A stretch of DNA of 64,000 nucleotides from Acidimicrobiia bacterium (GTDB taxonomy: Bacteria > Actinomycetota > Acidimicrobiia > IMCC26256 > DASPTH01): positions 28,737 to 92,736 of the forward strand of contig JBBDHW010000027.1 of assembly GCA_040880805.1 (NCBI GenBank), in the 5' to 3' direction. Numbering within the stretch: the stretch's first letter is position 1; every line of letters starts with the position of its first letter. Made by a program: the position numbers and the translations under genes. The notes below the pieces were generated by a model that saw only the letters and a list, made by a program, of their open reading frames with translations, was not told the origin of the DNA and made no database searches. Positions 31,595 through 48,150 of the stretch are shown one piece after another.

Positions 31595-31682
31595 GGGAGC
31601 CGCGCGTCCGCGGCGCAGGTACCCTGCGCCGCAGCGAGGCGGGGCCCGAGCGGCCCGGCGCCGCAGGCGCCGAGAGCGGGAA
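31595..31682 (+). repeat. Three-hairpin GC-rich intergenic repeat, copy A (full length)
   Basis: H1 GCGGCGCAGG-tac-CCTGCGCCGC (31610-31632). H2 GGGCC-cgagc-GGCCC (31642-31656). H3 GGCGCC-gca-GGCGCC (31657-31671). Tail gagagcgggaag. It lies between the pafC 3' end and the lepB start, antisense to both. Confidence 0.85.
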
Positions 31683-31717
31683 GCGGGAGCCGTGGGCACC
31701 TGAACCTCGTCTTACAC

Positions 31718-32653
31718 TTACCGGTAGCGAGTGAGGATGCGCGCGGCAGCTTTGGGTGCGATGCCGGCGGCGTCCTCCGGTCCGACGACGGTGGCGTCGG
31801 GGCCGAGCGAGAGCAGGAGCCGCTCGAGCCAGGCCGGTTCGCTCACCGCGAGCACGACCTGCCAGGAGCCGTCCGTGAGCTGAACGGCTGCCTCGTGGGG
31901 GTAGCTCTCCACCACCCACTCGGCGCTGGGCGCGAGCCGCAGCGTGACTCTCAGGTCGTCAGGCCGCGGTCGGTAGACGAGGTCGGCCATGTCGGCACCG
32001 CGGTCAACCGCATCGAAGTGCTCACCGGTGGAGCGGACGGCGCGCACACGATCGACCCGGAACAGCCGCTCGGCCGACGCGCGGTGGCACCAGGCCGCGA
32101 GGTACCACGCGCCGAACGCGTGGAACACGCGCCACGGGTCGACCACGCGCGTCGTCATCTCGTCGCGTGCGAACGAGTAGTAGTGGAGCTCGACTTGCTC
32201 CGATGCCGCGGCCGCGTTCTGCAGTTCTTCGAGGTGATCGCTCCCTCCGACGTCGACGGCGAGGCGGCCGCGGGCGTCGAGCGCATCCTCGAGCTTGTCG
32301 AGCGCAGTCGCCAGCGGCCCGCCCTCGTCGGATCCCGGGACCGACAGCAACGCGCGGCCGGCCGCGAGGAGCGCGAGGCCTTCGGCCGGCGTGAGGCGCA
32401 GCGGTCGCTCGAAGTACTCCGCGAGGCGGATCTCCACCGCGCCGTCGACGACCCACACGTCGATCAGCCGGTCGGCCGTGTACGGCGGGAGCCCACAGAG
32501 CGGCAGGAGCGCCAGATCGCGCTCGAGCTCGTCCTCCGACACTTCAAAGCGTTCGGCGAGCTCGGCGATCGTGACACCCGGGTGCGCGAGCACGTAGGGC
32601 ACGAGCGCGAGCACGCGCCGCAGCCGCGGCCCGACGAGCGGGCGTGGGCTCAC
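31718..32653 (-). CDS. pafC: Proteasome accessory factor C (HTH/WYL regulator)
   Basis: GTG 32653 overlaps the pafB stop (GTGA). 'LRRVLALVPYVLAHPGVTIAELAERFEVSEDELERDLALLPLCGLPPY'. Confidence 0.85.
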   Translation of the reverse strand: MSPRPLVGPRLRRVLALVPYVLAHPGVTIAELAERFEVSEDELERDLALLPLCGLPPYTADRLIDVWVVDGAVEIRLAEYFERPLRLTPAEGLALLAAGRALLSVPGSDEGGPLATALDKLEDALDARGRLAVDVGGSDHLEELQNAAAASEQVELHYYSFARDEMTTRVVDPWRVFHAFGAWYLAAWCHRASAERLFRVDRVRAVRSTGEHFDAVDRGADMADLVYRPRPDDLRVTLRLAPSAEWVVESYPHEAAVQLTDGSWQVVLAVSEPAWLERLLLSLGPDATVVGPEDAAGIAPKAAARILTRYR

Positions 32654-33597
32654 GATGTCCCTCGCTGCGCGACTGCTTGTAGCCACGCGACCAGATCGTC
32701 GCGGAGCTCGTGGGGACCGAGAACTTCGGCGTGATCGAGGAGATCGAGCACCCACGAACGGAACGCGGCGCGGTTGACGACCGGCAGCGCGACCTCCGCC
32801 GCGCCGTCGTCGCGCCGCTCGACAACCGACTCCTCGCCGAGCTGCTCGACGACCCACCCCGCGCGTGACGCGTCGACGAGGACCCGCGCCTCGACCGGGC
32901 GGTCCTCGCCGTACGTGAGCGGGTCGTCGCGTACGAACCGGGCGGGGTCGATGCCGGGTGGCGGCTCGAACGATCCGGGCGAACCGACCTCGGGATCGGC
33001 GTCGATCCGGTCGATGCGGAACGCGCGCGGCGCGTCGCGTTCGAGGTCGTGGCCGACGACGTACCAGTGGCCCCAACGCAGCACGACGCCGTACGGTTCG
33101 AGACTCCGGTTCTCACCCCGGTACTCGAACGTGATCGCGGCGCGGCGGCTCACCGCGTCGAAGAGCGCCGCCACGGCCGGCGTGACGGCCACCTCGGCCA
33201 TCGCCTCGTCGACGCCCTTTCCTGCGAGCCCGCCGAGCTTGGCGAGACCCTCGCGGCCATACCCGCCTTCGAGCCGCACCGCGCTCACCGCCAGATGCAG
33301 CGCGGCAAGCTCGGCATCGGTGAGCGAGAGCTCGGGCAGGTAGTAGTCCTTCGGGTTGATCCGGTAGGCCTGCTCGGCGCCGATGCCGTCGACCGCCTCC
33401 ACGCTGATGGGAACACCGAGCTCGCGCAGCGTCTCCTTGTCGCGCTCGAACTGGCGACGGCGTGAGCCCTTCTCTTTGGGGTACCGCGGCTCGACGCGCT
33501 CCGCGAGCTCGTCGAGCGTGAGGGGGCGGCGGGTGTCGAGCAGCGTGGCCGTGAGGTTGACCAGCCGCTCGAGCCGATCAGCCATCGAGCCGGTCAA
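32650..33597 (-). CDS. pafB: Proteasome accessory factor B (HTH/WYL regulator)
   Basis: 'ADRLERLVNLTATLLDTRRPLTLDELAERV...RRQFERDKETLRELGVPI'. Paired with pafC downstream of pafA. Confidence 0.85.
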   Translation of the reverse strand: MTGSMADRLERLVNLTATLLDTRRPLTLDELAERVEPRYPKEKGSRRRQFERDKETLRELGVPISVEAVDGIGAEQAYRINPKDYYLPELSLTDAELAALHLAVSAVRLEGGYGREGLAKLGGLAGKGVDEAMAEVAVTPAVAALFDAVSRRAAITFEYRGENRSLEPYGVVLRWGHWYVVGHDLERDAPRAFRIDRIDADPEVGSPGSFEPPPGIDPARFVRDDPLTYGEDRPVEARVLVDASRAGWVVEQLGEESVVERRDDGAAEVALPVVNRAAFRSWVLDLLDHAEVLGPHELRDDLVAWLQAVAQRGTS

Positions 33598-34661
33598 CCA
33601 TCGACGTGCGACGCGGCCAACGCGCCGGCCGCCGCGGCGGCCTGGAACAGCGCGGGGTCTTCATCGGCCGAGCGCCCCATCGATTGCACGTGGAGGTCGT
33701 GCTTGGCGAGCAGTTCCAGCGCGTCGGGCGCGTCGACTTCAACGAGCTCGTGCTTCCCGGAGATGCCCGCGGCGTCGAGGTCGGCCCAGAGGCGGACCGA
33801 CTGCTCGGGTTCCTCGAGGTTCGGCACCGCGACCAGCACGCACTCCCGAGTGGCGACCCGGAGCGCGGTCGCGCTGTGATGGGACAATCCGTAGTGACGC
33901 GGGCGCTCGTCGGCGAACGACACGCGCAGGCATGCGATCGGAACACCGCCGAGCGCGTGCGCGGCGTCGAGGATGGTGCCAACCTCCATGCCACTGAACC
34001 CGAGCCGGGTGTTGGTACCGACGATGCCGGGCCCCATGGCCACCACCACCGCGTCGGCCTCGGCGACGTGTCGCGCCACCGCGAGCGCGGAGTAGACCGA
34101 GACAGCCTCGTAGTCGCCGCCGAACGCGTGGCCGCACGTGATGGTCGTGTCGACGAGCCCCCGCTCGCACAGCGTGGCGACGAGGTCTGACAGCGCGAGC
34201 GGCAAGCCGGCGCCGTCGGTCATCACGTACGCGAGCCGCGCGCCGGGCAGGCGCTCCTTGAACGCGGCCGCGACCGCCGGGACCTGGCTGTGCAGCGCAG
34301 CCGCGACCACCGGCATGCCGTCGATCGACTCCACCTCGGCGAGCGACTCGAGGTGCTCCTCGGCGCTGCCCACGTCGCTCTGGATGCTCGTGTAGCGGCC
34401 CTTGATGATGTGGCCGGGGCCGCGCTCGTGCCACTCGTCGCGTGCGAGGTTCCAGTGCACGACGTGCCATCCGCCGGTGCCGAGCCCGAGCTCGACCGCG
34501 GTGGTGTTCACGACGACGCGGTCGCCCACCGAGACCGGGCCCGTGAGCTGCGGGAGTGCGTACGCGCGCTCGGGGCCGTCTCCGAGATCGACTTCGACAC
34601 GCTGAAGACCGGGGCGCTCCTCGAGCAGTCGCACGACGTTGCCGGTTCGAAACGACGGCAT
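33594..34661 (-). CDS. DUF3866-family protein
   Basis: 355 aa. 'VGDRVVVNTTAVELGLGTGGWHVVHWNL' matches my recollection of the DUF3866 signature. Its stop overlaps the pafB start (ATGA). Confidence 0.65.
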   Translation of the reverse strand: MPSFRTGNVVRLLEERPGLQRVEVDLGDGPERAYALPQLTGPVSVGDRVVVNTTAVELGLGTGGWHVVHWNLARDEWHERGPGHIIKGRYTSIQSDVGSAEEHLESLAEVESIDGMPVVAAALHSQVPAVAAAFKERLPGARLAYVMTDGAGLPLALSDLVATLCERGLVDTTITCGHAFGGDYEAVSVYSALAVARHVAEADAVVVAMGPGIVGTNTRLGFSGMEVGTILDAAHALGGVPIACLRVSFADERPRHYGLSHHSATALRVATRECVLVAVPNLEEPEQSVRLWADLDAAGISGKHELVEVDAPDALELLAKHDLHVQSMGRSADEDPALFQAAAAAGALAASHVDG

Positions 34662-34718
34662 CCTATTTCCTGGTCGCGCTCGCTGCGGCGCAGGGTACCG
34701 GCGCCGCGGTCGCTCGCC
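34662..34718 (-). repeat. GC-rich intergenic repeat, copy C (truncated: hairpin 1 module only)
   Basis: Minus-strand reading: GCGGCGCCGG-tac-CCTGCGCCGC agcgagcgcgaccaggaaatagg ATG (the DUF3866 start). One mismatch in the stem. It lies between the pafA stop and the DUF3866 start. Confidence 0.75.
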
Positions 34719-34769
34719 GCTCCTGCGAGCTTCCTTCGTTCGCTCCGCTCACTCCGGTCGCCGCCTCGC

Positions 34770-36128
34770 TTAGAGGCTGGCGATCAGGCGCTCGACGCGG
34801 TCGTCGCGCGACTTGAACGGGTCCTTGCACAGCACGGTGCGTTGCGCCTGGTCGTTCAGCTTGAGGTGCACCCAGTCGACGGTGAAGTCGCGCTTGCGCT
34901 CCTTGGCCCGCTTGATGAACGCGCCCCGCAGCCGCGCGCGCGTGGTCTGCGGCGGCGTGATCATCGCTTCGTCGATGTCTTCGTCGGTGGCAGTGCGTTC
35001 GACGAGACCGCGCCGCTGGAGCAGGTAGAAGAGCGAACGCGAACGTGTGACATCGTGATACGCGAGGTCGAGCAGCGCGACGCGCGGGTGCGTGAGTGGG
35101 AGGTCGTGCTTCTCGCGGTAGGCCTCGATCATGTGGTACTTGATCACCCAGTCGACCTCGGACGAGAGCTTCAGCGGGTCGTTCTCGAGGTGGGTCATCA
35201 CGTGCTCCCACATCGCGAGGGCCTGCTCCTCGAGCGGTGACACACCACGCCGCTTCGCGAACTGGAGCGCGCGCGACAGGTATTCGGCCTGCATTTCGAC
35301 GGCCGAGAGCTCACGACCGTTCGCGAGGCGCACGCGGCGCCGGCACGTGACGTCGTGGCTGATCTCGCGGATGGCGCGGATCGGGTTCTCGAGCGTGAGG
35401 TCGCGCCAGGGGCGCGAGTCCTCTTCGAGCATGCGCAGCACGATCGCCGTGGCGCCGACCTTGAGGAAGGTGGTGTACTCGCTCATGTTCGAGTCGCCGA
35501 CGATCACGTGCAGGCGCCGAAACCGCTCGGCATCGGCGTGCGGCTCGTCGCGCGTGTTGATGATCGGGCGCGAGCGTGTGGTGGCACTCGACACCCCCTC
35601 CCAGATGTGCTCTGCGCGCTGGCTGACGCAGTACATCGCGCCGCGCGCGGTCTGCAGCACCTTGCCCGCGCCGGCGTACACCTGACGGGTGACGAGGAAC
35701 GGGATCAGCACGTCGGTGAACTTCGTGAAGTCGCCGTCGCGCTCGACCAGGTAGTTCTCGTGGCAGCCGTACGAGTTGCCCGCGGAGTCGGTGTTGTTCT
35801 TGAAGAGATAGACCTCGCCGCGGATGCCTTCCTCGCGCAGCCGTTGCTCGGCACTCCGAACGAGACCTTCGAGATATCGCTCTCCCGCCTTGTCGTGCAC
35901 GACGAGGTCGGCGATGGAATCGCACTCGGGGGTCGCGTACTCGGGGTGGCTGCCGACGTCGAGGTAGAGACGGGCGCCGTTCTCGAGGAAGACGTTGCTC
36001 GACCGGCCCCACGACACGACCCGGCGGAACAGGTAGCGGGCCACTTCGTCGGGGCTCAGGCGGCGCTGACCGCGCAGCGTGCACGTGACCCCGTACTCGT
36101 TCTCGAGTCCGAAGATCCGGCGTTCCAC
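34770..36128 (-). CDS. pafA: Pup--protein ligase PafA
   Basis: '[14 protein letters not shown]...[22 protein letters not shown]', 452 aa. Confidence 0.95.
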
Positions 36129-36169
36129 AGGCCCACGCTACTGCGGAGCCGGACGGAGCCGGTACCGCA

Positions 36170-36751
36170 TCAGCTGTCGGTGAGGAACGAGCAGGCGGGC
36201 TCCGCGTTGAACGCGTCATCGAGTTCGCCGCCCTTGTCGAGGGTGTCGATGTCGCTGATGTCCTCGCCGGCCTTGGCGAGGTCACTGTCGACCTCGGCGG
36301 AGACCGTCTTCACCTTGGCGCGGAACTTCTTCGGATCGGTCGACGCCTTCGCCACCGCGTCCTTCGCGTCGCTGAATGCCTCCGCCGTGTCACCGATGGC
36401 CGTGGCAATCGTGGTCGAGATCTTGGAGCCGTTCGCCACGGCGGGTGCCCCGAGGTCCTTCACCGCCTTGCTCGTACTCGTCGATTTCTTGCTCGCGGCC
36501 GCGAGCGCGTCGACGATCTTCTTCTGGGCGGACTTGGCCTTCGAGGAGCTGCTGACCCCGTTCTCGATCACGTTGTCGACCAGGTCGTGCGCTTTCAAGG
36601 CCGTGGTCTGCCAGTCCTCGACGGCGTTGCAGAAGCCCTCGGCCCACTCGTCGACGTCGACGGTCTTGGCGCTCGCCATCGGCGCCGACGCGACCATCAA
36701 CCCGACGGAAGCGACCAGTGCGGCGATGGCGATCCCGGCATGCCGGCGCAT
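36170..36751 (-). CDS. Secreted hypothetical protein (signal peptide; Ala/Ser/Lys-rich)
   Basis: 'MRRHAGIAIAALVASVGLMVASAPMASAKT' is a signal peptide. RBS gggaggg lies 5 nt before ATG 36751. A conserved Cys pair sits near the two ends. Confidence 0.55.
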   Translation of the reverse strand: MRRHAGIAIAALVASVGLMVASAPMASAKTVDVDEWAEGFCNAVEDWQTTALKAHDLVDNVIENGVSSSSKAKSAQKKIVDALAAASKKSTSTSKAVKDLGAPAVANGSKISTTIATAIGDTAEAFSDAKDAVAKASTDPKKFRAKVKTVSAEVDSDLAKAGEDISDIDTLDKGGELDDAFNAEPACSFLTDS

Positions 36752-36810
36752 CCTGCCCTCCCAGCTCGGCAACGAAGGTGAGCGTAACTCCCTGGCGTCC
36801 TACGATCGTA

Positions 36811-36890
36811 GCGAGCGTCCGCGACGCAGGTACGCTGCGCCGCAGCGAGCGGGGCCGAGCGGCCCGGCGCCCGAGGCGCCAAGAGCGGAG
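36811..36890 (+). repeat. Three-hairpin GC-rich intergenic repeat, copy B
   Basis: GCGACGCAGG-tac-GCTGCGCCGC (imperfect), GGGCC-gagc-GGCCC, GGCGCC-cga-GGCGCC, tail aagagcggag. The tail directly abuts ATG 36891/36896 of the downstream + strand gene. Confidence 0.85.
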
Positions 36891-36895
36891 ATGGG

Positions 36896-37261
36896 ATGCC
36901 GGCGGGAAGGCTGACTCAGGTCACGTCGGTCAACGGCGCGTTCGGGGCGCGGGTACTCAAGGCGCGACTCGAATCGTGCGGGATCGATGCCCGCCTCACC
37001 GGCGCGCTCGACGGGGTCTACGGATTCACCGTGGGTGACATGGCCCGGGTCGACGTGTACGTCCCCGAGGAACAACTCGACGACGCGCGCTACATCCTGC
37101 TCGCCGGCGAGGTCGACGCCGCGCTCGCGGCGCCGAGCGAGTGGTGGGACTCAGGGGTCGAACCGCGGCGCCGGGCGCGCTGGCCGTGGTGGGTCGCGGT
37201 GGCGCTGCTGATGATGGTGGTGCTCGGCCCGCTGCTCGGCCTGTACGTCAGGAACTGGTAG
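36896..37261 (+). CDS. DUF2007-like small protein with a C-terminal TM segment
   Basis: 'GARVLKARLESCGIDARLTG....VDVYVPEEQLDDARYIL' (DUF2007-like fold pattern), then TM 'WWVAVALLMMVVLGPLLGLYV'. It converges on prcA with a 14-nt overlap. Confidence 0.5.
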   Translation: MPAGRLTQVTSVNGAFGARVLKARLESCGIDARLTGALDGVYGFTVGDMARVDVYVPEEQLDDARYILLAGEVDAALAAPSEWWDSGVEPRRRARWPWWVAVALLMMVVLGPLLGLYVRNW

Positions 37262-37940
37262 TCGCGGCGAGGATCTCCGCGAGCTCGGGGCCTTCGATTC
37301 TCCTGAACGCGCGGCGCGGCCGCGAGCGGTCGAGGATCGCGACCTCGAGCTGCGCGGGGCCGAGCGAACCGTCGGGACCGGCGAGCAGCTCCACGCAGAG
37401 GCGGATCGCCGCGTCGGCCTCCATGCCCTGCTCGAAGCGCGTGCCGAGCCCCTCGGAGAGCGTCTCCGCGCGCCCGCCGAGCACGGTGCAGCCCTCTTCG
37501 TCCATGACGGTGCCGTCGTAGGTGATGTGGTACAGCTTGTCGTCGGTGGGTGTGACGCCGACCTCGGCGAGCAGGATCTCCACCTCGTACGGCTTCATCT
37601 CGTGCGTGAACACCTGTCCGAGTGTTTGCCCGTACGCGTTGGCGAGTGAGCGCGCGTTCACGTCTTCGCGGGAGAATTGGTATCCCTTCAGGTCGGCCTG
37701 CCGCACACCCCCGACCCGCAGCATCTCGAACTCGTTGTACTTGCCGACGCCACCGAACGCGATGCGGTCGTAAATCTCGCTGATCTTGTAGAGCGTGCGG
37801 AACTGATTCTCGGTGACGATGACGATGCCCTCGGCCGCGCTGCACGCGATGAGGTCACGCCCGCGCGCGATGTTCTTGCGCGCGTAATCCGCGCGGTCCT
37901 TCATCAGCTGTTCCGGCGGCACGTAGAACGGCATGCTCAC
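37248..37940 (-). CDS. prcA: Proteasome alpha subunit
   Basis: 'PFYVPPEQLMKDRADYARKNIARGRDLIA...YKISEIYDRIAFGGVGKYNEFE'. The start (GTG 37940 or ATG 37934) overlaps or abuts the prcB stop. Confidence 0.95.
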   Translation of the reverse strand: MSMPFYVPPEQLMKDRADYARKNIARGRDLIACSAAEGIVIVTENQFRTLYKISEIYDRIAFGGVGKYNEFEMLRVGGVRQADLKGYQFSREDVNARSLANAYGQTLGQVFTHEMKPYEVEILLAEVGVTPTDDKLYHITYDGTVMDEEGCTVLGGRAETLSEGLGTRFEQGMEADAAIRLCVELLAGPDGSLGPAQLEVAILDRSRPRRAFRRIEGPELAEILAATTSS

Positions 37941-38767: not shown

Positions 38768-38778
38768 CGCGGGCGAGC

Positions 38779-39234
38779 CTATACGGACGTTGTACGCAAC
38801 TCCCCCGCCCGCTTGCGAGCACGGTCGCGGAGCTCGCGCGCCTCAGGATCGTGTGTGCCGAGGTACGCGGCGGCGTTCACCAGCGAGTCGATCGAGTCCT
38901 TGAACTGCCCGAGCCCGCCATTGCAGTTGAAGCACAGGATCCCGCGGACCGCGCCGGTGTCGTGACTGTGAGCGACGTGCTCGGGATCTTCCTTGCCGCA
39001 GATCGCGCACACCCCACCCTGCTGGACGACGAGCGCATCAAAGTCGTCCGCGCCGATGCCGTAGCGACGCTTGAGGTGGTAGTGCCGACTGCCGCCGTAC
39101 AGGCGTTGCTTCGATTCCTTGCCACGCGCGTTGTGGCAGACCTTGCACTCCGATCGGTGGCCGTCCCTCATGCCAGCCGCTCGGTAGAACTCGGAGTAGG
39201 GCTTGGCCTCGCCGCATTTCTTGCAGCGTTTCAT
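38779..39234 (-). CDS. Recombination endonuclease VII-domain protein (HNH-type)
   Basis: 'CKKCGEAKPYSEF...HRSECKVCHNAR' plus 'GVCAICGKEDPEHVAHSHDTGAVRGILCFNCNGGLGQFKD' fits the Endonuclease_7 pattern. It sits between pup and prcB. Confidence 0.8.
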   Translation of the reverse strand: MKRCKKCGEAKPYSEFYRAAGMRDGHRSECKVCHNARGKESKQRLYGGSRHYHLKRRYGIGADDFDALVVQQGGVCAICGKEDPEHVAHSHDTGAVRGILCFNCNGGLGQFKDSIDSLVNAAAYLGTHDPEARELRDRARKRAGELRTTSV

Positions 39235-39283
39235 GCCCCAATTGTACGGAAAGGGTATGACACCTACGTCTTGTGGATAACTT

Positions 39284-40984: not shown

Positions 40985-41021
40985 AAGCCGAGCCTACCGG
41001 CCCCTACGAGCGATCCGGGCG

Positions 41022-42791
41022 TTACAGGTACTGACCGGTACTGACGCGCTCGATCTGGCGACCGCCGTGCTCTTCCGAACCGTCGGACATGAGCGTGCGC
41101 ACGAACACGATGCGCTCGCCCTTCTTGCCCGAGATCTTCGCCCAATCGTCCGGGTTCGTCGTGTTCGGGAGATCCTCGTGCTCGCGGAACTCCTGGCGGA
41201 TCGAATCGAGCAGGTCCTGCGTGGAGATGCCCTTGTCGCCGCCTGCGATCTGCCGCTTGATCGACAGCTTCTTCGCGCGCCGCACCATGTTCTCGATCAT
41301 GGCGCCCGACGAGAAGTCCTTGAAGTAGAGGACCTCCTTGTCGCCGTTCTGGTACGTGACCTCGAGGAAGCGGTTGGCGTCGTCGACTGAATACATGCGC
41401 GCGACGGCGGCTTCGATCATTTTCTCGACGGCCGTCGTGGGCTCGCCGTGCTGTGCGGTCTCCTCGTCGGCGATCGGCAGATCGGGCGTGAGGTACTGGG
41501 CGAAGATCTGCTTCGCGCTGTCTTCGTTCGGGCGTTCGATCTTGATCTTCACGTCGAGGCGGCCCGGACGCAGGATCGCGGGGTCGATGAGATCCTCGCG
41601 GTTCGAAGCACCGATCACGATCACGTTCTTCAAGCTCTCGACGCCGTCGATCTCGGCGAGGAGCTGCGGCACGATCGTGCTCTCGATGTCGGACGAGATT
41701 CCGGTGCCGCGGGTGCGGAACAGGGAGTCCATCTCGTCGAAGAACACGATGACCGGGTTGCCCTCCTCGGACTTTTCGCGCGCACGCTGGAAGATCAAGC
41801 GGATCTGGCGCTCGGTCTCACCGACGTACTTGTTGAGCAGCTCAGGGCCCTTGATGTTGAGGAAGTACGAGCGCGCCTCGGCGTTGCCGGTCTTCTCCGC
41901 GACGCGGTGGGCGAGCGAGTTGGCAACCGCTTTCGCGATGAGCGTCTTGCCGCAGCCGGGCGGACCGTAGAGGAGGATGCCCTTCGGCGCTTGCAGCCGA
42001 TGCTCGAGGAACATCTCCGAGTAGAGGTACGGCAGCTCGACTGCGTCTTGGATCTGCTCGATCTGCTCGTCGAGACCGCCGACGTCGGCGTAGGTGATGT
42101 CGGGAACCTCCTCGAGCACGAGCTCCTCGACCTCGGGGCGGGGCAGCCGCTCGGTGAGCAGGCTCGAACGCGGGTCCATCAGGACGTGGTCACCGGCGCG
42201 CAGCTTCACGCCGATCAACGCCTCGGAGAGCTCGCACACGCGCTCTTCGTCGGCGCGGCCGATCACGAGCGCGCGGTCGCCGCTCGCCAAGATCTCCTTG
42301 AGCACGACGACCTCGCCCGAAACGTCGGCGCCCCGCGCGAGCACGACGCTCAGCGATTCGTTGAGCGCGACCTCGGCACCGCTGCGGATGCCGTCGAGGT
42401 CGACTTCCGGGTGGACGGACACCCGCATCTTGCGGCCGGCGGTCATGATGTCGACGGTGCCGTCGTCGTTGGCGCCGACGTAGGTGCCGTAGGCCGACGG
42501 CGGCATCGTGAGCTTCTCGACTTCTTCGCGCAGCGCCGCGATGTGCTCGCGCGCCTCGCGGAGCGTGGCGGAGAGGCGCTCGTTCTGCGAGACGGCTTGG
42601 GCGAGCTGGCCCTTCGTCTCGAGGACGCGCTCCTCGAGGGTCCGCACCCGCTTCGGAGCGTCCTGCAGCCGGCGGCGCAGGACCACGACCTCTTCTTCGA
42701 GAGTCTTCAGCTGCGACTGGAGATCGCCCACTTGGCGCTCGTACTCGGCCAGCCGCCGCTCGTGCTCTGAAGCCACGTAGGTCACCTCCAT
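41022..42791 (-). CDS. mpa: Proteasome-associated AAA ATPase (Mpa/ARC)
   Basis: Coiled-coil N-terminus, Walker A '[18 protein letters not shown]', and the C-terminal 'TGQYL' proteasome-docking motif. Start is ATG 42791 (or GTG 42797); the 99-codon upstream extension of the ORF covers repeat E and was rejected. Confidence 0.95.
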
Positions 42792-42873
42792 CTTCACGCT
42801 CTCGGCGCCTTCGGCGCCGGGCCGCTCAGGCCCCGCTTCGGTGCTCGGCGGGGTACCCGCCTCGCGGACCCTC
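42792..42873 (-). repeat. Three-hairpin GC-rich intergenic repeat, copy E
   Basis: Minus-strand reading: GGCGGG-tac-CCCGCC ... GGGCC-tgagc-GGCCC GGCGCC-gaa-GGCGCC gagagcgtgaag ATG (the mpa start). Confidence 0.85.
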
Positions 42874-43086
42874 ACCTCCAGGAACGCTGCCGGGGGCCTC
42901 GCGTCGGACCTTACACCGGCACTTCGGCAGGTCTGTGCCACCTTTCGGCGACGTGGTGTGACCCCCTCAGATTTCCCCTGCTTTGGCTTGAGAAATCCCC
43001 CTGCGCCAACTACGCTGGGGATCTCGACCGGCTGCCCTTGACTGGCCGTCCCGGCCCACGTTCGGCCCATGTTTCGGAAGGACACC

Positions 43087-43323
43087 ATGAAGGTCTGGAT
43101 CGATCAGGACCTCTGTACCGGCGATGGTCTCTGTGAGGAGATCGCCCCGGCGGTCTTCACCCTCCTCGACGACGGCCTCGCCTACGTCAAACAGGGCGAC
43201 AAGGTCTTCAGCGACCCCGGCGGAGCCGTTGGTCTGGCCGACGTGCCCGGGGGCATGGAGGAGGCCGTGATCGAGTCGGCCGAGGAGTGCCCCGGCGAGT
43301 GCATCTTCATCGAGGTCGACTGA
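43087..43323 (+). CDS. Small ferredoxin (3Fe-4S/4Fe-4S single-cluster type)
   Basis: '[24 protein letters not shown]...[10 protein letters not shown]'. RBS ggaagga precedes ATG 43087. Confidence 0.85.
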
Positions 43324-43347
43324 GCCGGCGGAGTTCGCTCCCCGCGT

Positions 43348-43386
43348 GAACGATCCGGGCCGGTAGCCCGGGTCGTTCTGTTCTTG
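43348..43386 (+). terminator. Intrinsic terminator downstream of the ferredoxin gene
   Basis: 13-bp stem GAACGATCCGGGC / GCCCGGGTCGTTC (one G-U pair), loop cggta, then the T-rich tail tgttcttg. It lies 25 nt after the stop codon. Confidence 0.65.
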
Positions 43387-43623
43387 CGTTCCGCATGACG
43401 CAGCGGTCGACGACTTGTGCTCTTCGCGTTGAAGTGTGGAGGACCGTCGCGCGGCACACGGCCGAGGCGCGGCGTGCCGGGCCGTTCCCGCGACAGCGCC
43501 TGGCTGAGTACCGGGCCCGCCTCACCGACGGCCTTCGGCAATGTTGTGAGCCGGGTGTGGCCGATCCGACGAGAACGTACGATGTTCGTCGTTGTCTTGA
43601 TCACGGAAAGACGAACAACTCGG

Positions 43624-44769
43624 ATGCCCGCATCGCGTACCGGGCGAGTCGGCAGAGTCGTGGCGCTCGCGGCGGCCGTCACCTTCGTGGCCGGGGCCGG
43701 GTGCGTCTCCGCCACCCGCGGAGCCCGGAGGAGCGTTGCAGTTCGGCTGAACGATCTGCAGGTCGTGGGAACACACAACAGCTACCACGTCGAGCCTGCA
43801 TCCGCTGCGCTCAACGTGATCACGAGCGTCGACCCCGAACTGATCAACCTCGCGGTGACGCATCCGCGGCTCGCGACGCAGCTCGGGCACGAAGCGGTGC
43901 GGCAAGTCGAGCTCGACGTGTTCGCGGATCCCGACGGGACGCTCTGGCGCCCGCTCGGAACGCCGGGCTTCAAGGTATTCCACATGGAGCAGGTCGATAT
44001 GGGCTCGACGTGCGAGACGTTCGTGGTCTGCCTGGGGGCGCTTCAGCACTGGTCGGACGCGCATCCGAGCCACCTACCCGTCTTCGTGCTCGTGCAACCG
44101 AAAGGCGAGGTGGTTCTCCCGGGCCCGCCCAACCCCGTGCCGCTCACGACAGGGATCCTCGACGCTCTCGACGCGGAGATCCGCTTGGTGATGAAGCCGA
44201 GTGATTTGATCACTCCCGACCGAGTGCGCGGGAAGAGTCCCACGGTCGAGGTGGCTGTGCTCGCCAACGGATGGACCAAGCTCCACGACGCGCGCGGCAA
44301 GTTCGTGTTCCTCCTGCTTCCCGAGTTCCGGGATCTGTACATCGAGGATCATCCGAACCTCGAAGGGCGCGTGATGTTCCCGGCCGCGACCCCCGGGCAG
44401 CCCGACGCGGCATTCATCCAAGTCGACGACCCGCGTGGGGCGAACGAGGCGACGATCAGCGACCTCGTCCGGAAGGGGTACCTGGTTCGCACGCGAGCCG
44501 ACGAGGCCGTCGTGACACCCCGATCCGGCGACCCGACGCAGCGCGACGCAGCGTTCGCGAGCGGCGCGCAGATCGTGAGCACGGACTACCCGGTACGGGG
44601 GCTCGCGGCCCGGTGGGGTTCCGACTACGTGGCACAACTCCCGGGCGGCGTCCTCGCCCGCTGCAATCCGATCCGCGCTCCACGGGCGTGCCGGGCGCGC
44701 GACCTCATGGAGCCGGGGATCAGCCGAGGCGCAAAGAAGTCTCGAGCGGCTCGAGGAGGGCTGCCTTGA
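43624..44769 (+). CDS. PI-PLC X-domain-like phosphodiesterase, probable lipoprotein
   Basis: A signal/lipobox-like 'VALAAAVTFVAGAGC' is followed by 'VVGTHNSYH', the PI-PLC catalytic His motif. ATG 43624; the upstream part of the ORF was rejected. Confidence 0.55.
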   Translation: MPASRTGRVGRVVALAAAVTFVAGAGCVSATRGARRSVAVRLNDLQVVGTHNSYHVEPASAALNVITSVDPELINLAVTHPRLATQLGHEAVRQVELDVFADPDGTLWRPLGTPGFKVFHMEQVDMGSTCETFVVCLGALQHWSDAHPSHLPVFVLVQPKGEVVLPGPPNPVPLTTGILDALDAEIRLVMKPSDLITPDRVRGKSPTVEVAVLANGWTKLHDARGKFVFLLLPEFRDLYIEDHPNLEGRVMFPAATPGQPDAAFIQVDDPRGANEATISDLVRKGYLVRTRADEAVVTPRSGDPTQRDAAFASGAQIVSTDYPVRGLAARWGSDYVAQLPGGVLARCNPIRAPRACRARDLMEPGISRGAKKSRAARGGLP

Positions 44770-44810
44770 CCGATGGGTATCGCCCGGCGATCACCGGTTG
44801 CCAGGAAACC

Positions 44811-44841
44811 GACGTCCCCGAAAGCCAATCATTCGGGCGTC
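44811..44841. terminator. Hairpin between convergent genes (possible bidirectional terminator)
   Basis: GACG(tc)CCCGAA-agccaatca-TTCGGGCGTC. On the minus strand it is followed by ggtttcc. It lies in the 127-nt gap between the PI-PLC-like and marP-like gene ends. Confidence 0.3.
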
Positions 44842-44896
44842 AAGAAAGTGAAACGGTGCGGCCCAGCGCTCCCCACTCGACCGCGTGGAGCCCGAA

Positions 44897-46078
44897 CTAT
44901 TCGGAGAGGCAGGCTCCGGTGGAGACGGGCTCGTGTCGTGCGCTCGAGAGCACCGGATCGAGCACGGCGTTCAACTCGGAATTGGTGAGGGCGTAGGCGG
45001 TGGTGGGGCGGCTCAGGTCGAACGCAAAGAGGACGCCGAGGACCTTGCCCTCTTGGTCGACGACCGGGGCGCCCGAGTCACCGGGCTCGGTGACGGCGGC
45101 GAGGACGAACACTTCGCGCCGCGTCGCGGCGGTGCGCTCGATGTTCGTGCCCTTGGCGACGATCTGCTCGGCGATGCGCATCGGCGACTCGCGCAACGGT
45201 CCACCCGCGGGGTGGCCGAAGAGCGATCCGCGGTCGTCGACATGACCGTCGCCGCGCGCGAGTGCCGGTAGGTGGAGTCCGGAGACCTCGAGCACCGCGA
45301 GGTCGCGGTCGGGGTCGAACGCGACCACGTCGGTCTCGAAGTGCGTCCCGTCGAGTGTGGAGATGCGCGTGCGCGACTCCCCGGCCACGACGTGCGCGTT
45401 CGTCACGATCAGGCCGGTACCGGCGACGAATCCGGTGCCCTCCTGCTCCCGGTCGCACGCAGCGCCTTCGACCTTCACGACCGAGCCGCTCACCCGCCGC
45501 CCGACCTCGGTTGGAATCCCGTGCTGCGGAGGCGAGCCCGCGTCGGGCGAGGTGAGGGTGTCGAAGACCTCGGGGAAGCTCTCGTCGCCGACGAGCCGGC
45601 CGAGCGTCTGGGCTTCGGAGGGCGGGTCGGGAGCGATCCGGTCGATCGCGCGCGCGACCGCCGAGTCGCGCACCGCGCGCGCCGGCCAGCCCGGCGAGCT
45701 TGCCAGCGCGGGGATGAGCAGCCACATCAGGGCGAGCACACCGGTGACGCCGACGATCGCGCCCGCGACACGGTCGCCCGTGTGCAGAGCGGGGCTCGCG
45801 CTGCGGCCGAAGTGTCGGTGCAGCGCCCCCCCGGACGCGTACCCGATCGCATGCCCGATGGTCGCGACGAGCAGCACGAACGCGAGCGCGCCGAGGAGTC
45901 GAGTGCGCGGCGGCGTCCCGCGTAACGCCTCGGCCACGTTGTCGACCAACACGACCGCGAGGACCACACCCGCGAGCAGCCCGCCCCACGACGCGACGCG
46001 CCGCACGAACCCCAATCGGTGGCCGATCCAGCCGGCTGCGACCGCAGCCGCGATGACCAGCAGGTCGAGGAAGTTCAC
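44897..46078 (-). CDS. MarP-like membrane serine protease (CvpA-type TM domain plus trypsin-like domain)
   Basis: GTG 46078 overlaps the trmI stop (GTGA). N-terminal TM helices; 'GTGFVAGTGLIVTNAHVVAG' (His box), 'DLAVLEV' (Asp), 'TEPGDSGAPVV' (Ser). Confidence 0.8.
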   Translation of the reverse strand: MNFLDLLVIAAAVAAGWIGHRLGFVRRVASWGGLLAGVVLAVVLVDNVAEALRGTPPRTRLLGALAFVLLVATIGHAIGYASGGALHRHFGRSASPALHTGDRVAGAIVGVTGVLALMWLLIPALASSPGWPARAVRDSAVARAIDRIAPDPPSEAQTLGRLVGDESFPEVFDTLTSPDAGSPPQHGIPTEVGRRVSGSVVKVEGAACDREQEGTGFVAGTGLIVTNAHVVAGESRTRISTLDGTHFETDVVAFDPDRDLAVLEVSGLHLPALARGDGHVDDRGSLFGHPAGGPLRESPMRIAEQIVAKGTNIERTAATRREVFVLAAVTEPGDSGAPVVDQEGKVLGVLFAFDLSRPTTAYALTNSELNAVLDPVLSSARHEPVSTGACLSE

Positions 46079-46860
46079 GCGCCGGGCGCGAGCAGCCGGG
46101 CGTGGGTGAGGAAGCCGGTGTGGGCGACCATCCGGTGGTCGGGTCGCACCGACTGGCCGTCGACGTGCCACGTTCGCTGCAGCACCTCGAGTGTCTCGAT
46201 CATGCCGAACGTGGATCCCGCGAGCTCCTCGCGCAGCCGCGCGACCTGGCCGATCGTGGGGAGGTACGCGAGCAGGATGCCGCCCGTGTGCATCGCCTCC
46301 TCGGCGTGCTTGACGACGCGCCACGGCTCGGGCAGATCGAGCAGCACGCGGTCGAGGGCGGTCGCGTCGATGCCCTCGTACACGTCGCGCACCTCGACCG
46401 TGAGCGGCAGGTCGGGTCCGAGGAAGCCCGCGACATTCGCCTGTGCGCGGCGCGCGAAGTCGTCGCGGATCTCGTAACCAGTGACGTGACCGGTGGTACC
46501 GATCGCGCGCAGGAGGGCGAGCGTGAGCGCGCCGGAGCCGACCCCGGATTCGAGCACCTGCGCACCGGGAAAGACGTCGGCGAGGATCAGGATCGGGCCG
46601 AGGTCCTTCGGGTAGATGACCTGCGCGCCGCGCGGCATCTCGAGCACGTACTCGGCCAGGGTCGGCCGGACCGCGACGAGCCGCGACCCGAGCGTGGTGC
46701 GCACGGTCGAGCCCTCGGGCGTGCCGATGAGCGCGTCGTGCTCGAGCACCCCGGTGTGCGTGTGGAACTGGCCCCCGACCGCGAGCGTGACGAGGTGACG
46801 GCGACGCTTGGCGTCGACGAGCAGCACGCGGTCGCCGGCGGCGAACGTTCGCGCCACCAC
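46075..46860 (-). CDS. trmI: tRNA (adenine58-N1)-methyltransferase
   Basis: 'GDRVLLVD.KRRRHLVTL..G..FHTHTGVLEHDALIG...GAQVIYPKDLGPILILADVFPGAQVLESGVGSGALTLALL' is GCD14/TrmI family. Neighbourhood as for Rv2118c near mpa. Confidence 0.85.
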   Translation of the reverse strand: MVARTFAAGDRVLLVDAKRRRHLVTLAVGGQFHTHTGVLEHDALIGTPEGSTVRTTLGSRLVAVRPTLAEYVLEMPRGAQVIYPKDLGPILILADVFPGAQVLESGVGSGALTLALLRAIGTTGHVTGYEIRDDFARRAQANVAGFLGPDLPLTVEVRDVYEGIDATALDRVLLDLPEPWRVVKHAEEAMHTGGILLAYLPTIGQVARLREELAGSTFGMIETLEVLQRTWHVDGQSVRPDHRMVAHTGFLTHARLLAPGA

Positions 46861-46862
46861 CC

Positions 46863-47816
46863 CTACCTCCTGCCCGTGATCGTGATCGTGACCGCTTGCC
46901 GTTCAGCCACGGAGGCGGCTGCGGCCTTCTCGCGCAGGCGGCAGAACGCGCACACGTCGCCCGGTGTGGGCGCGCCACACACGGAGCACGCGCGCAACGC
47001 CTCGCGCTCCACGTTGGCATCAGGCGCGAAGCGTTCGTGGCCGCGCTCGAGGAACCCGAAGAGGAACGCGGCCTTCGTGCCGGGCGAGGAACTCTCGAGT
47101 GTGTTCAGCACGTCTTTGAACCCGAGGTGACGGTTACCGGCCGCCATCGGGCACTCCTCGACCTGATAGTCGATCCGGCGCAGCACGCAATACGCCGCGG
47201 TTTCGCGCTCGCCGAGCCGCACGAGCGGCTTCACCTTGCGCACGAAGCCGGGCGCGGCCGGCAGGATCGGATACTGACGGCCGAGGTACGCGGTGTCCCA
47301 ACGCAACACGTTGCCGAGCAGCACCGCGGCCTCGTCGTCGAGGTTGTGCCCGGTGGCGACGACGTCGTAGCCGTTGTCGAGCGCGGCCGAGTTGAACAGA
47401 TGGCGCTTCGAGAGCCCGCACGCGCCGCATGGTGCGCGCCGGGTGGCCGCCGCGGCGCCGGGAATGTCGTAGCCGTAGTCGCGCGCGAGGTCGATCTCGA
47501 TGAGCGGCCGACCGACGGCGCGCGCGTGCTCACGCGCGTAGGTGGTCGATTCGTCGGAGTACTCGCCGATACCGAGGCCGAGATAGAGGCCGTCGGCCGC
47601 ATAGCCGAGCCGGAGGAGGAGGTCCCACAGCGCGAGCGAGTCCTTGCCGCCCGACACCGCGACGAGCACGCGCTCCCCCGACGTGAGCATTCCGTGGGCG
47701 TCGATCGCACGCCGCACCTGCTCCTCGCAGTGGTGGAGGAAGTGATCGCGGCAGAACGCGGCATTGTGGCGGCGCACGTCGACGACTGCCGGCTCGCGGC
47801 ACACGCGGCACTTCAT
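46863..47816 (-). CDS. ttuA: tRNA-5-methyluridine(54) 2-sulfurtransferase (TtuA-type PP-loop ATPase)
   Basis: N-terminal CxxC...CxxH zinc finger, PP-loop 'VLVAVSGGKDSLALWDLL', 'CGACGLSKRH', 'VATGHNLDDEAAVLLGNVL', C-terminal 'CSVCGAPTPGDVCAFC'. Close to my recollection of Thermus TtuA. Confidence 0.85.
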   Translation of the reverse strand: MKCRVCREPAVVDVRRHNAAFCRDHFLHHCEEQVRRAIDAHGMLTSGERVLVAVSGGKDSLALWDLLLRLGYAADGLYLGLGIGEYSDESTTYAREHARAVGRPLIEIDLARDYGYDIPGAAAATRRAPCGACGLSKRHLFNSAALDNGYDVVATGHNLDDEAAVLLGNVLRWDTAYLGRQYPILPAAPGFVRKVKPLVRLGERETAAYCVLRRIDYQVEECPMAAGNRHLGFKDVLNTLESSSPGTKAAFLFGFLERGHERFAPDANVEREALRACSVCGAPTPGDVCAFCRLREKAAAASVAERQAVTITITGRR

Positions 47817-48022
47817 TCGAAGCCCCCGGAGCCCCCGGAGATCACCGGGCGTATCTCGACCGCGGCCTCGTCGTCGATGCGGATGTCGCGGGTGACGAGC
47901 TCGTCACCGACGATCACGAGCACCGATTCGGGGTTGAGCTCGAAGTGCTCGAGGAGCCGGGCAACTGTCATGGGCCCGCGCAACTCGACCTCGCGGCGCG
48001 GGTTGCGCAGCAGCACCTTCAC
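47813..48022 (-). CDS. ttuB: TtuB-like ubiquitin-fold sulfur carrier (ThiS/MoaD family) with a C-terminal extension beyond the di-glycine
   Basis: 69 aa: 'MKVLLRNPRREVELRG...LNPESVLVIVGDELVTRD..IDDEAAVEIRPVISGG-SGGFE'. The stop overlaps the ttuA start (ATGA). It resembles Thermus TtuB, which ends ...ISGG. Confidence 0.75.
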   Translation of the reverse strand: MKVLLRNPRREVELRGPMTVARLLEHFELNPESVLVIVGDELVTRDIRIDDEAAVEIRPVISGGSGGFE

Positions 48023-48061
48023 CGAAGACGACCTCTTGGCACTGAAACCAGGCTACCGGCC

Positions 48062-48150
48062 GAGTTTCCCGCTCTCGGCGGCTGCGCCGCCGGGCCGCTT
48101 GGGCCACGCCTCGCTGCGCCGCAGGGTACCTGCGGCGCGGACGCCCGGCT
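48062..48150 (-). repeat. Three-hairpin GC-rich intergenic repeat, copy D
   Basis: Minus-strand reading: GCGCCGCAGG-tac-CCTGCGGCGC agcgaggcg TGGCC-caagc-GGCCC GGCGGC-gca-GCCGCC gagagcgggaaa. It starts right after the upstream stop codon and ends about 40 nt before the ttuB-like GTG. Confidence 0.85.

Follow-up and report, generated by a model that had tools for sequence, protein, structure and literature searches.

BOX elements of Streptococcus are made up of boxA, boxB and boxC units in varying combinations and numbers, and the RPE of Rickettsia are found inserted in frame into protein-coding genes. MIRU of Mycobacterium (Supply et al., 1997, via PMC3184786 and PMC12548453) are GC-rich units of 40–100 bp with internal inverted repeats, located between genes in operons, mostly oriented with the genes and either single or in tandem. 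The same sources give their flanking direct repeats as tetranucleotides and describe, at start codons, an ORF that runs through the unit and ends in ATGA, overlapping the gene start (PMC3184786, PMC12548453). CGTC families of palindromes have 8–9 bp stems starting with A·T, loops of 4–5 nt and a CCA tail (Di Nocera et al., 2013; PMC3733652), and none is reported there from Actinobacteria.

Here we analyse five GC-rich hairpin repeats (copies A–E) in a 64 kb stretch of acidimicrobial DNA (the window). We consider it probable (about 0.75) that each is a copy of a small mobile DNA element, modular in build and non-autonomous, with a wide distribution in Acidimicrobiia. The copies in the window are recent insertions, comparable to mycobacterial MIRU, and not a proteasome-specific control element; the best reading of the family is as a new, non-autonomous, MIRU/MITE-like one, MIRU being compared by layout and description and not by sequence. 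The observation made in an earlier note is confirmed, and its interpretation is partly supported.

Copies in the window

The window holds exactly five copies, located from 31.6 to 48.2 kb, where the earlier note had placed them; a covariance model of the family found none besides A–E in the 64 kb, with rounded bit scores of 88 for E, 85 for D, 84 for A, 77 for B and 35 for the short copy C. Two independent degenerate patterns matched four copies each (expected 0.00 from 100 dinucleotide shuffles), and pairwise identities given by a repeat finder were 78–92% over 86–94 nt. All five are single units, not arrays, and the count of five refers to the 64 kb window and not to the source genome as a whole.

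Copy A (31603–31682, + strand; 84.1 bits) is an 80 nt full element consisting, in order, of a GCGTCC lead, hairpin 1, a AGCGAGGCG linker, hairpins 2 and 3 and a GAGAGCGGGAA tail. Its neighbours, pafC and lepB, both run antisense to it, so that the ‘gene-parallel’ orientation proposed previously is true of four copies only. A 10 bp target-site duplication, GCGGGAGCCG, lies to its left (31593–31602, +) and right (31683–31692, +). Copy C (34666–34718, − strand; 35.1 bits, E=2e-4) is a short form with hairpin 1 (34685–34707) and GAGCG flanks, lacking hairpins 2 and 3, in the 108 nt pafA–DUF3866 spacer (34662–34769), which also has degenerate TGAGCGGAGCGAAC-type motifs. We reject the idea that C is a truncated A: it combines a GAGCGGAGCGAAC-type module upstream with hairpin 1, a different module combination that is found again in locus L204. 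Copy B (36815–36890, + strand; 76.8 bits) is a full but degenerate element in which hairpin 1 has two mismatches and hairpin 2 is shortened. Most of a 123 nt divergent intergenic region is taken up by this copy, whose end lies only 5 nt from the ATG of a DUF2007 gene, so that its GGAG tail falls at the Shine–Dalgarno position of that gene; inspection of its flanks by eye revealed no recognizable target duplication.

Copy E (42791–42871, − strand; 88.4 bits), an 81 nt full element, has a hairpin 1 of a second subtype, GGCGGG-tac-CCCGCC with tandem G·A pairs, and is located in the arc 5′ leader immediately upstream of the arc Shine–Dalgarno sequence. Its 9 bp target-site duplication, TGGAGGTGA, is present upstream (42872–42880, −) and downstream (42782–42790, −), the downstream copy being the retained arc ribosome-binding site; the GTG start of arc is at 42776. 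Copy D (48065–48144, − strand; 85.2 bits), an 80 nt full element in sense orientation, separates the stop codon of a 93-aa ORF from a ThiS/TtuB-like gene. It is bordered by a degenerate 9 bp duplication, the left part of which (TAGAGCCGG; 48145–48153, −) includes the upstream TAG stop and the right part of which (CTCGGCCGG; 48056–48064, −) is identical to the left at 5/9 positions.

Empty sites in relatives

All five sites are empty in those relatives whose loci cover them (L121, L201–L206). L201–L203, with PafA 95–96% identical, have orthologous sites without the element and zero family matches within their loci, and the orthologous sites of L204–L206 also lack it. Alignments of filled with empty sites reveal precise insertions of 81 nt plus a 9 bp duplication for E, 80 nt plus a 10 bp duplication for A, and 80 nt with a degenerate 9 bp duplication for D. 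For copy A the clear alignment is that with L203 (L201 aligns poorly there), which has one related copy of the duplicated word, GACCCCGCGTC, on the opposite strand. L121, whose Arc is 90% identical, lacks copy E, as do L202 and L203, and the empty arc sites have GGAGGTGA once; copy D is absent from L204, L205 and L206, the spacer being ~43–45 nt in L204 and L206 and L205 having a single TAGCCCGG. Copy C belongs to a ~100 nt insertion that expanded its spacer, the distance from the pafA stop to the DUF3866 ATG in relatives being only 4–20 nt, and L202 and L203 lack the whole 36129–36895 segment, which comprises a 200-aa ORF and copy B. In this lineage insertion occurred at gene boundaries with duplication of ~9–10 bp of target, clearly for A and E and in degenerate form for D, and the duplication keeps an intact signal beside the gene, as with the Shine–Dalgarno sequence and GTG start of arc downstream of E.

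Across the family the longest word shared by the two flanks averages 9.4 nt, versus 5.4 nt for flanks paired across loci, and these repeats are found at fixed positions. Of 26 right flanks, 12 contain TGAG, for which the background is 2.4% (P=2e-13), and such TGAG/GGAG-type motifs occur in Shine–Dalgarno sequences, ATGAG starts and TGA stops. Certain of the flanking ‘duplications’ run into sequence that the copies themselves share (TGAGCGAGCG); except at A, D and E, they may represent partial tandem units or microhomology instead of true target duplications.

The grouping of five copies within 16.6 kb, with zero in the remaining 47 kb (a nominal and post-hoc P of ~0.017 for five random points within 16.55 kb of 64 kb), and the presence of some copies in the same region of relatives are what a shared operator or riboregulator dedicated to arc, pafA–pafBC and ttuB would lead one to expect. 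Such a regulator is nevertheless highly improbable, being contradicted by the empty orthologous sites and by 80 metagenomic arc loci in which nhmmer found no copy (the covariance model gave one weak match there, a tandem array of partial modules in L167). Further, copies in relatives occupy different junctions (arc–dop in L205; after the cvpA–protease gene in L204 and L205), copy A is antisense, and in other genomes the genes next to the repeat are unrelated housekeeping ones (SMC, SecY, PGI, aldolase, korB and others). The tie to the Pup-proteasome and ttu genes implied by the title of the earlier note is thus not upheld, and no role specific to Pup-proteasome genes is implied.

Structure and covariation

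The family is modular, with elements of ~50–90 nt, and the full unit comprises a GAGCG(T/A)CC lead, hairpin 1, an AGCGAG linker, hairpin 2, hairpin 3 and a purine-rich RAGAGCGGRAR tail, conservation setting in at GCGTCC, ~10 nt before hairpin 1. Hairpin 1 has a 6–10 bp stem of at least two subtypes and a TAY loop, hairpin 2 is a near-invariant GGGCC-CGAGC-GGCCC segment, and hairpin 3 has a 6 bp stem closed by C-G around a GNA triloop. The compensatory changes between A and D that had been named before are present, with hairpin 1 arms GCGGCGCAGG/CCTGCGCCGC in A versus GCGCCGCAGG/CCTGCGGCGC in D, and hairpin 3 arms GGCGCC..GGCGCC versus GGCGGC..GCCGCC. In 123 copies among the matches listed, 91.8% of cells are paired, compared with 32–48% when partners are slid, and double changes are seen in 10/10 pairs of hairpin 1 and 4/6 pairs of hairpin 3; at the hairpin 3 position left free by the search pattern, the 119 matches listed have C/G 90 times, G/C 29 times and no mismatch. 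Since hairpin 2 hardly varies it carries no covariation evidence, and the claim that compensation holds the stems stands for hairpins 1 and 3 but not for hairpin 2, which is missing from the minimum-energy folds of A and D.

The stems are kept by double changes, as had been argued, but G·T (28) and A·C (22) mismatches in them are about equal, so there is no RNA-type wobble signature; given also that mobile hairpin repeats keep their stems too, the conserved structure does not point to RNA.

These equal counts fit a duplex palindrome, and a DNA-level site bound by gyrase, a nucleoid-associated protein or a recombination factor of the host through recognition of a hairpin or cruciform, as proposed for enterobacterial REP/BIME, would also account for the BIME-like modular mosaic and for a hairpin 2 and 3 sequence that is nearer to invariance across species than pairing demands. 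This near-invariance of the hairpin 2–3 module spans many species, exceeds that of most REP or MITE families and could reflect binding of a conserved host factor, although the impression is inflated because loci were picked by exact match within that very module. We think a duplex site improbable, since two features, the GNA loop and the tandem G·A pairs, belong to one strand and would be meaningless in duplex DNA, a bias in orientation to genes is unexpected for a purely duplex site, insertion sites are lineage-specific and no candidate protein is known.

Distribution, modularity and gene context

An exact-pattern scan of species-representative genomes gave at least 120 loci, and the family architecture is found in at least 119 copies, at least 103 loci and at least 65 species-level assemblies, labelled almost without exception, among the matches listed, as Acidimicrobiia, Acidimicrobiales, Microthrixaceae or Actinomycetota. 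No transposase was found among the neighbouring genes, and no mobilizing enzyme or autonomous partner in ~2 Mb of loci, the sample of ORFs between element pairs numbering only nine, all housekeeping genes. The loci examined likewise yielded no insertion sequence with matching ends. Copies A, D and E have no convincing terminal inverted repeats (at most TCCGC...GCGGA, 5–6 bp), hence the usual MITE model with transposase in trans is not established. Outside the window, longer ‘type II’ relatives (~150 nt) have inverted ends of the AGAGG...CCTCT type in some copies and include some inverted dimers.

Arrays of two to three units occur in L004, L009, L025, L070, L040, L115 and L167, with periods of 81/82 and 91/92 nt, and hairpin-1-only copies in L026, L064, L074 and L115. 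Two tandem 87 nt units lie in frame with korB in L004, and in L055 a 45 nt module lies in frame within a CN-hydrolase-like gene, the sole in-frame case of that kind. Together with the open frames that run through all copies, these cases might suggest a translated repeat encoding a peptide cassette. That this should be its nature is scarcely credible: a GC content of 69% makes open frames likely in any case, copies differ by single-nucleotide indels that shift the frame (e.g. A, D and E versus B), the array periods are not multiples of 3, and it is base pairing, not codons, that tracks conservation.

With respect to genes, copies between co-directional neighbours are sense in 46 cases and antisense in 16 (P=2e-4, among the matches listed, from crude GC3-based gene calls); this wider sample, too, shows a bias only, about a quarter of such copies, A included, being antisense. 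A start codon follows the tail by 4–12 nt in 20/119 copies, compared with 2/119 on the antisense side, and an ATGA/GTGA layout with an open upstream frame is present in 16/32 start-adjacent copies (both among the matches listed), open frames being common at this GC content; copies A–E do not have this −4 coupling layout. The folds predicted for full copies are very stable (−42 to −56 kcal/mol). The sense bias, the tails at Shine–Dalgarno distance (as in copy B, 5 nt from its ATG), this stability, the strong conservation of stems and GNA loop, and the near-identical hairpin 2–3 module across at least 65 assemblies might all be ascribed to an RNA module selected by the host as a 5′/intercistronic stabilizer, a barrier to processing, a partial terminator or a cassette for translation initiation, whose spread would be secondary. 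We regard this as unlikely, though the least so of the alternatives, considering that close relatives do not keep the sites, that the antisense quarter and the G·T to A·C ratio are at odds with it, that ~83% of copies among the matches listed are away from Shine–Dalgarno distance, that fold z-scores are modest (−0.6 to −2.3) and that the copies have neither T-tract terminators nor an Rfam family.

Rfam returned no match at gathering score and only chance-level matches up to E=5, in line with the earlier failure to name an RNA family, and no published description of the hairpin repeat was found in the literature. We accordingly set aside an Rfam-type cis-regulatory structured RNA, there being no curated-family match and the orthologous positions being empty in relatives. 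An intrinsic terminator is rejected as well: the tails are purine-rich with no T-run after the hairpins, and none of the three terminator-like sites in 31400–48400 coincides with a copy.

A possible mechanism

Returning to a mobile element, we suggest that a putative enzyme supplied in trans makes staggered cuts ~9–10 bp apart, and that the stems may be conserved since the hairpins are needed for mobilization, or for tolerance after insertion. The GNA triloop and tandem G·A pairs suggest that the hairpins would be formed by one particular strand, as single-stranded DNA or as RNA. The sense bias and Shine–Dalgarno-like tail may then represent selection against insertions that disturb expression. 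Each inserted sense copy would give the leader or intercistronic RNA a very stable predicted structure, and sense copies could incidentally stabilize or occlude the transcript.

Relationship to known repeats

The likeness to MIRU/REP-type elements put forward in the earlier note pointed in the right direction. REP/BIME and GTAG/CGTC palindromes (PMC3733652) share with the family an imperfectly palindromic build, short and GC-rich, in which stem changes are compensated, along with mosaics of modules, inverted dimers (here in some type II copies) and occasional intragenic units. Hairpin 1 is often preceded by a CGTC motif (GAGCGTCC), as in the CGTC families, whose stem and loop rules are unlike those of the Acidimicrobiia repeat; moreover, REPs have no target duplications, whereas the repeat has them. 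We therefore do not assign it to REP/REPIN, the CGTC-like head of many copies notwithstanding. BOX is similar in its modular units in differing combinations, and RPE in in-frame insertion, seen once in the family (L055); neither is known to be related to it by sequence, and their hosts are unrelated.

With the MITEs Correia, ERIC/IRU and RUP (PMC3184786) the family has in common small size, lack of coding capacity and of a transposase gene, target-site duplication, intergenic location, stable folds, presence or absence between relatives and the possibility of gene fusion or intragenic position; it differs in that the type found in the window lacks convincing terminal inverted repeats, and in that a related insertion sequence was not identified. 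As with MIRU, the units are small, GC-rich and intergenic (80–81 nt for full copies A, D and E in the window), with internal inverted repeats, in an actinobacterial host; they occupy sites that are empty in relatives, have short direct repeats at their flanks and form tandem arrays of variable unit number (outside the window). The start-overlapping ATGA layout of MIRU may have a counterpart in the ATGA/GTGA layout of 16/32 start-adjacent copies among the matches listed. The family is distinguished from MIRU by its host class, Acidimicrobiia, by flanking repeats of ~9–10 bp in place of tetranucleotides, by an orientation that is a bias and not a rule, and by its three-hairpin modular build with partial-module variants.

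Copies in the window and their surroundings

A covariance model (R1, alignment A6) made from 27 family members finds exactly five matches in the 64-kb window: copies A (31603–31682, plus strand; 84.1 bits), C (34666–34718, minus; 35.1 bits), B (36815–36890, plus; 76.8 bits), E (42791–42871, minus; 88.4 bits) and D (48065–48144, minus; 85.2 bits). Direct reading of the window at these places matches the transcription of five hairpin repeats in an earlier note, whose account of their number and position is thereby confirmed. A degenerate pattern covering hairpin 3 and the tail matches four copies, and a second one, covering hairpin 1 and the linker, also matches four (0.00 expected from dinucleotide shuffles); a repeat finder pairs copies at 78–92% identity over 86–94 nt. 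The conserved stretch starts 5' of hairpin 1, at GCGTCC. Copy C is a hairpin-1-only form with a preceding GAGCGGAGCGAAC-type module, a combination also held by the related locus L204. All five lie inside 16.55 kb (nominal P ~0.017 if five points are placed at random in 64 kb). Open frames traverse every copy in the window; frame-shifting indels, together with array periods not divisible by 3, rule out a coding repeat.

Gene order in the window (69% GC) was taken from Pfam scans and the sequence itself. On the minus strand a holin-like ORF and a 93-aa ORF are followed by copy D, a ThiS/TtuB-like gene, ttuA, trmI and a cvpA–protease fusion; then, after a plus-strand PI-PLC gene, come copy E, arc, dop, pup, an endonuclease VII gene, prcB and prcA; beyond prcA lie DUF2007 (plus strand, with copy B directly upstream), a 200-aa secreted-looking ORF, pafA and copy C, and finally DUF3866, pafB, pafC, copy A and lepB. 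Copies D and C are thus intercistronic and in sense orientation, E occupies the arc leader, B lies within a divergent spacer with its end 5 nt ahead of an ATG, and A is antisense relative to both adjoining genes. No intrinsic terminator or sigma-70 promoter was found at the copies.

Several other features of this region deserve mention. The recombination endonuclease VII gene (PF02945; 38779–39234, minus strand), between pup and prcB in the Pup-proteasome operon, is preceded by an AT-richer spacer, with GC dipping to 0.59 at 39200–39599; a homologue is found in the same place in one relative (L202) and not in another (L203), and the gene has the look of a small insertion in its own right, of mobile or homing type. 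The 200-aa ORF (36170–36772, minus strand) has a signal-peptide-like N-terminus (MRRHAGIAIAALVASVGLMVASAPMASA), a GC3 of 0.92 and no Pfam match; it is missing from close relatives, where DUF2007 directly adjoins pafA, and copy B stands at its upstream edge. The closest PafA homologues (P0001–P0014) are annotated as 473–478 aa, the window protein and most other matches as 452 aa, and the longer call in L202 and L203 abuts the divergent DUF2007 gene; the longer annotations probably reflect start codons called too far upstream. Further along, a minus-strand ORF (52720–53937) has a perfect 15-nt tandem repeat (CCCGATGACGTCAAC, 5.1 units; 53928–54003) at its 5' end or close to it.

Empty sites in relatives

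The pattern of filled and empty sites is what characterises a mobile element that has remained active after the divergence of these lineages. Three contigs (L201–L203), with PafA 95–96% identical and the same gene order, contain no family match, and their alignment to the window is interrupted precisely where copies A, C, B and E lie. At arc, the closest locus (L121) aligns through the leader with a single GGAGGTGA, where the window has TGGAGGTGA, the 81-nt element and TGGAGGTGA repeated; L202 and L203 agree with the empty site of L121. Similarly, the pafC–lepB spacer of L203 is without the 80-nt element and carries one copy of the 10-bp sequence that borders A on both sides, and the pafA–DUF3866 spacer, which holds copy C, measures 108 nt in the window versus 4–20 nt in relatives. 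In the three ttuB-covering contigs (L204–L206) no element is present at site D: the spacer is short in L204 and L206 (~43–45 nt), and L205 has a single TAGCCCGG-like sequence, the window having 80 nt of element flanked by TAGAGCCGG and CTCGGCCGG. Copy B is inside a ~770-nt segment, including the 200-aa ORF, which is altogether missing in relatives.

Relatives in turn carry degenerate or short-form copies at other junctions, between arc and dop in L205 and 3' of the cvpA–protease gene in L204 and L205 (L205 11382–11460; L204 8951–9003; L205 8878–8942), and the Pup-proteasome region has taken up insertions independently on more than one occasion. A conserved element of the arc leader is ruled out, since among 80 metagenomic loci with an Arc 68–90% identical to that of the window nhmmer detected the element in none, and the covariance model gave one weak match, to a tandem partial-module array in L167.

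The cvpA–protease/arc region is a hotspot of gene turnover and repeat insertion. Between these two genes the window has a Ca2+-dependent PI-PLC gene (43417–44769, plus strand), and L203, L204 and L205 have a small ferredoxin gene in its place. A conserved block upstream of arc (42900–43060, minus strand; GATTTCTCAAGCCAAG...GGGGGAAATCT...TGCCGGTGTAAGGTCCGA) is common to relatives, as aligned with L121 and L203; situated ~20–170 nt upstream of the insertion point of copy E, it is a plausible arc promoter or operator.

Flanks of the insertions

Direct repeats at fixed positions also flank single window-type copies in other genomes, the longest shared flank word averaging 9.4 nt as against 5.4 nt for flanks paired between different loci. 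TGAG occurs in 12 of 26 right flanks (2.4% background; P=2e-13). Since TGAG, GGAG and ATGA are parts of stop codons, Shine–Dalgarno sequences and starts, gene boundaries are where the insertions occur, and after duplication an intact translation signal remains beside the gene; at arc, the native Shine–Dalgarno sequence and GTG start are kept downstream of E. Where the start is ATGAG, an ORF traversing the unit terminates in a TGA that overlaps the ATG of the gene, a layout found in 16 of 32 start-adjacent copies and reported for MIRUs in reviews (PMC3184786, PMC12548453). The flanking repeat partly overlaps sequence conserved among copies (TGAGCGAGCG), so that target duplication, microhomology and a partial extra unit are inseparable outside A, D and E. 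The ends of A, D and E have no more than TCCGC/GCGGA in common, which falls short of a convincing terminal inverted repeat.

Distribution, forms and gene context

An exact scan for GGCCCGGCGSCNNNGSCGCCRAGAG, with one genome per species, returned at least 120 loci; the matches listed divide into 119 with the family architecture and 17 that arose by chance. Family copies occur at no fewer than 103 loci in at least 65 assemblies, nearly all labelled Acidimicrobiia, Acidimicrobiales, Microthrixaceae or Actinomycetota. We distrust the labels of those assigned to Bifidobacteriaceae, Bifidobacterium breve or Burkholderiales because their contigs have a GC content of 67–74%, and do not take them to show spread beyond Actinomycetota. 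The hairpin 2–hairpin 3–tail module is near constant and the 5' part variable. Beside two hairpin-1 subtypes, both represented in the window, the forms comprise a type II unit of ~150 nt with a second, inverted hairpin 3, units of hairpin 1 alone, 45-nt units of hairpins 2 and 3 only, and tandem arrays with periods of 45, 58, 63, 81–82, 87 and 91–92 nt. In one further locus (L055, minus strand ~2450–2564), ~1.7 copies of the 45-nt module stand in frame in a CN-hydrolase-like gene, reading ...VAVNRIGSE[GPSGPAAKPPRAGSEGPSGPAAKPP]LTFYGSSF..., which resembles the in-frame insertions of Rickettsia palindromic elements.

The earlier note had placed the repeats around the Pup-proteasome and ttu genes, and the implied link to these genes is not supported: the orthologous sites are empty in the relatives covering them (L121, L201–L206), the 80 arc loci are negative by nhmmer, elsewhere the neighbouring genes are unrelated, and we see no link of the family to any gene function. 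Copies between co-directional genes, as judged by crude GC3-based gene calls, are 46 sense and 16 antisense (P=2e-4), and among the matches listed a start codon lies 4–12 nt past the tail in 20 of 119 copies versus 2 of 119 on the antisense side. No transposase or autonomous partner is among the nine ORFs that were scanned where two copies lie close together (SMC, 2-hydroxyacid dehydrogenase, aldolase, PGI, dehydroquinase, CO-dehydrogenase flavoprotein, SecY, or no match).

Stems, loops and covariation

The compensatory changes between A and D named in the earlier note, at position 4 of hairpin 1 and in the middle of hairpin 3, are both correct, and its wider claim of conserved structure is supported for hairpins 1 and 3, which show double changes; hairpin 2 never varies. 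The search pattern left one hairpin-3 base pair open to any of the four combinations; among the matches listed, family copies have 90 C/G, 29 G/C and no mismatched pair, all mismatched combinations being in chance hits. Copies found without that pattern add the hairpin-3 stems GGCCC-GNA-GGGCC and GGCC-GCA-GGCC. In an alignment of 123 copies, which are kin and were fitted to the covariance model so that the figures are supportive and not a formal test, 91.8% of cells are paired (32–48% with slid partners), with double changes at 10 of 10 pairs of hairpin 1 and 4 of 6 of hairpin 3. Hairpin 2 is invariant, its outer pair is unpaired in 54 of the 123 copies, and the minimum-energy folds of A and D are without it. 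Minimum-energy folds also show the pairing extended to the 5' lead and the linker; this extension is perfect in two variants only (L035 and L066) and was rejected as a general feature.

The loop of hairpin 3 is GNA in 107 of 123 copies, with a C-G closing pair, and some 30 copies have tandem G·A/A·G pairs in an E-type hairpin 1; both are features of one strand. C-GNA-G is an unusually stable DNA mini-hairpin motif. The wobble signature specific to RNA is not seen, G·T (28) and A·C (22) mismatches being about equal. Full copies have predicted RNA folds of −42 to −56 kcal/mol, which are only 0.6–2.3 sd better than shuffles because the background itself is GC-rich. Individual copies may have acquired an exapted role as RNA, for example in stabilising or occluding leaders. 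The data can be accounted for without such a role, which would have no particular tie to the Pup-proteasome genes.

Discussion

The evidence best supports a new family of mobile repeats in Acidimicrobiia that are small, modular and non-autonomous. The insertions and target duplications were observed directly, as were the preference in the flanks, the modularity and the conservation of the stems. We suggest that an enzyme acting in trans would cut with a ~9–10 bp stagger, that the one-strand hairpins may be the feature recognised for mobilisation, and that the orientation bias may stem from purifying selection. A bolder reading, which we consider unlikely, is a MIRU-like mobile class without terminal inverted repeats, in which unrecognised machinery would act on strand-specific hairpins (C-GNA-G, tandem G·A) and integrate at TGAG/GGAG/ATGA with a ~9–10 bp duplication, rebuilding Shine–Dalgarno sequences and starts. 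If that were true, the many recent insertions in dozens of Acidimicrobiia species could expose a mobilisation mechanism shared with mycobacterial MIRUs, and the near-invariant hairpin 2–3 module would be a candidate binding site of a conserved actinobacterial protein.

For annotation, the element gives rise to spurious N-terminal extensions and fused ORFs; close PafA homologues have annotations exceeding the 452-aa window protein by 24–26 aa. The conspicuous hairpins in front of arc, ttuB and DUF3866 result from insertion and should not be taken for conserved regulators. Spanning a class of mostly uncultured bacteria, with clean filled and empty pairs, a strong TGAG preference and no obvious transposase, the modular repeat family lends itself to comparative study of how MIRU-type elements move, a question as yet unsolved. 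For strain typing in Acidimicrobiia, for instance the Microthrix-related wastewater bacteria, the tandem arrays could provide markers.

The family is apparently undescribed, although the kind itself is ordinary. Literature searches turned up neither a description of such repeats in Acidimicrobiia nor a paper that includes their sequence; Rfam gave no family match over the whole window at gathering score and, over 31.4–48.4 kb with E up to 5, only chance-level CRISPR-repeat and viral hairpin matches below threshold. Among known systems, REP/CGTC palindromes share a CGTC-like head with the present repeats, which do not follow the rules for stem and loop in the described families; the paper describing the CGTC-tagged palindromes reports none from Actinobacteria (PMC3733652), and REPs, unlike the present family, lack target duplication. 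MITEs have target duplication in common with it, but not their terminal inverted repeats. The behavioural features of mycobacterial MIRUs are found here wholly or in part, a likeness judged on behaviour. The MIRU/REP analogy originally drawn for these repeats is supported and can be narrowed to a mobile element that duplicates its target, and we file the family among the small interspersed mobile repeats, as a member of no named family and closest in behaviour to mycobacterial MIRUs and MITEs.
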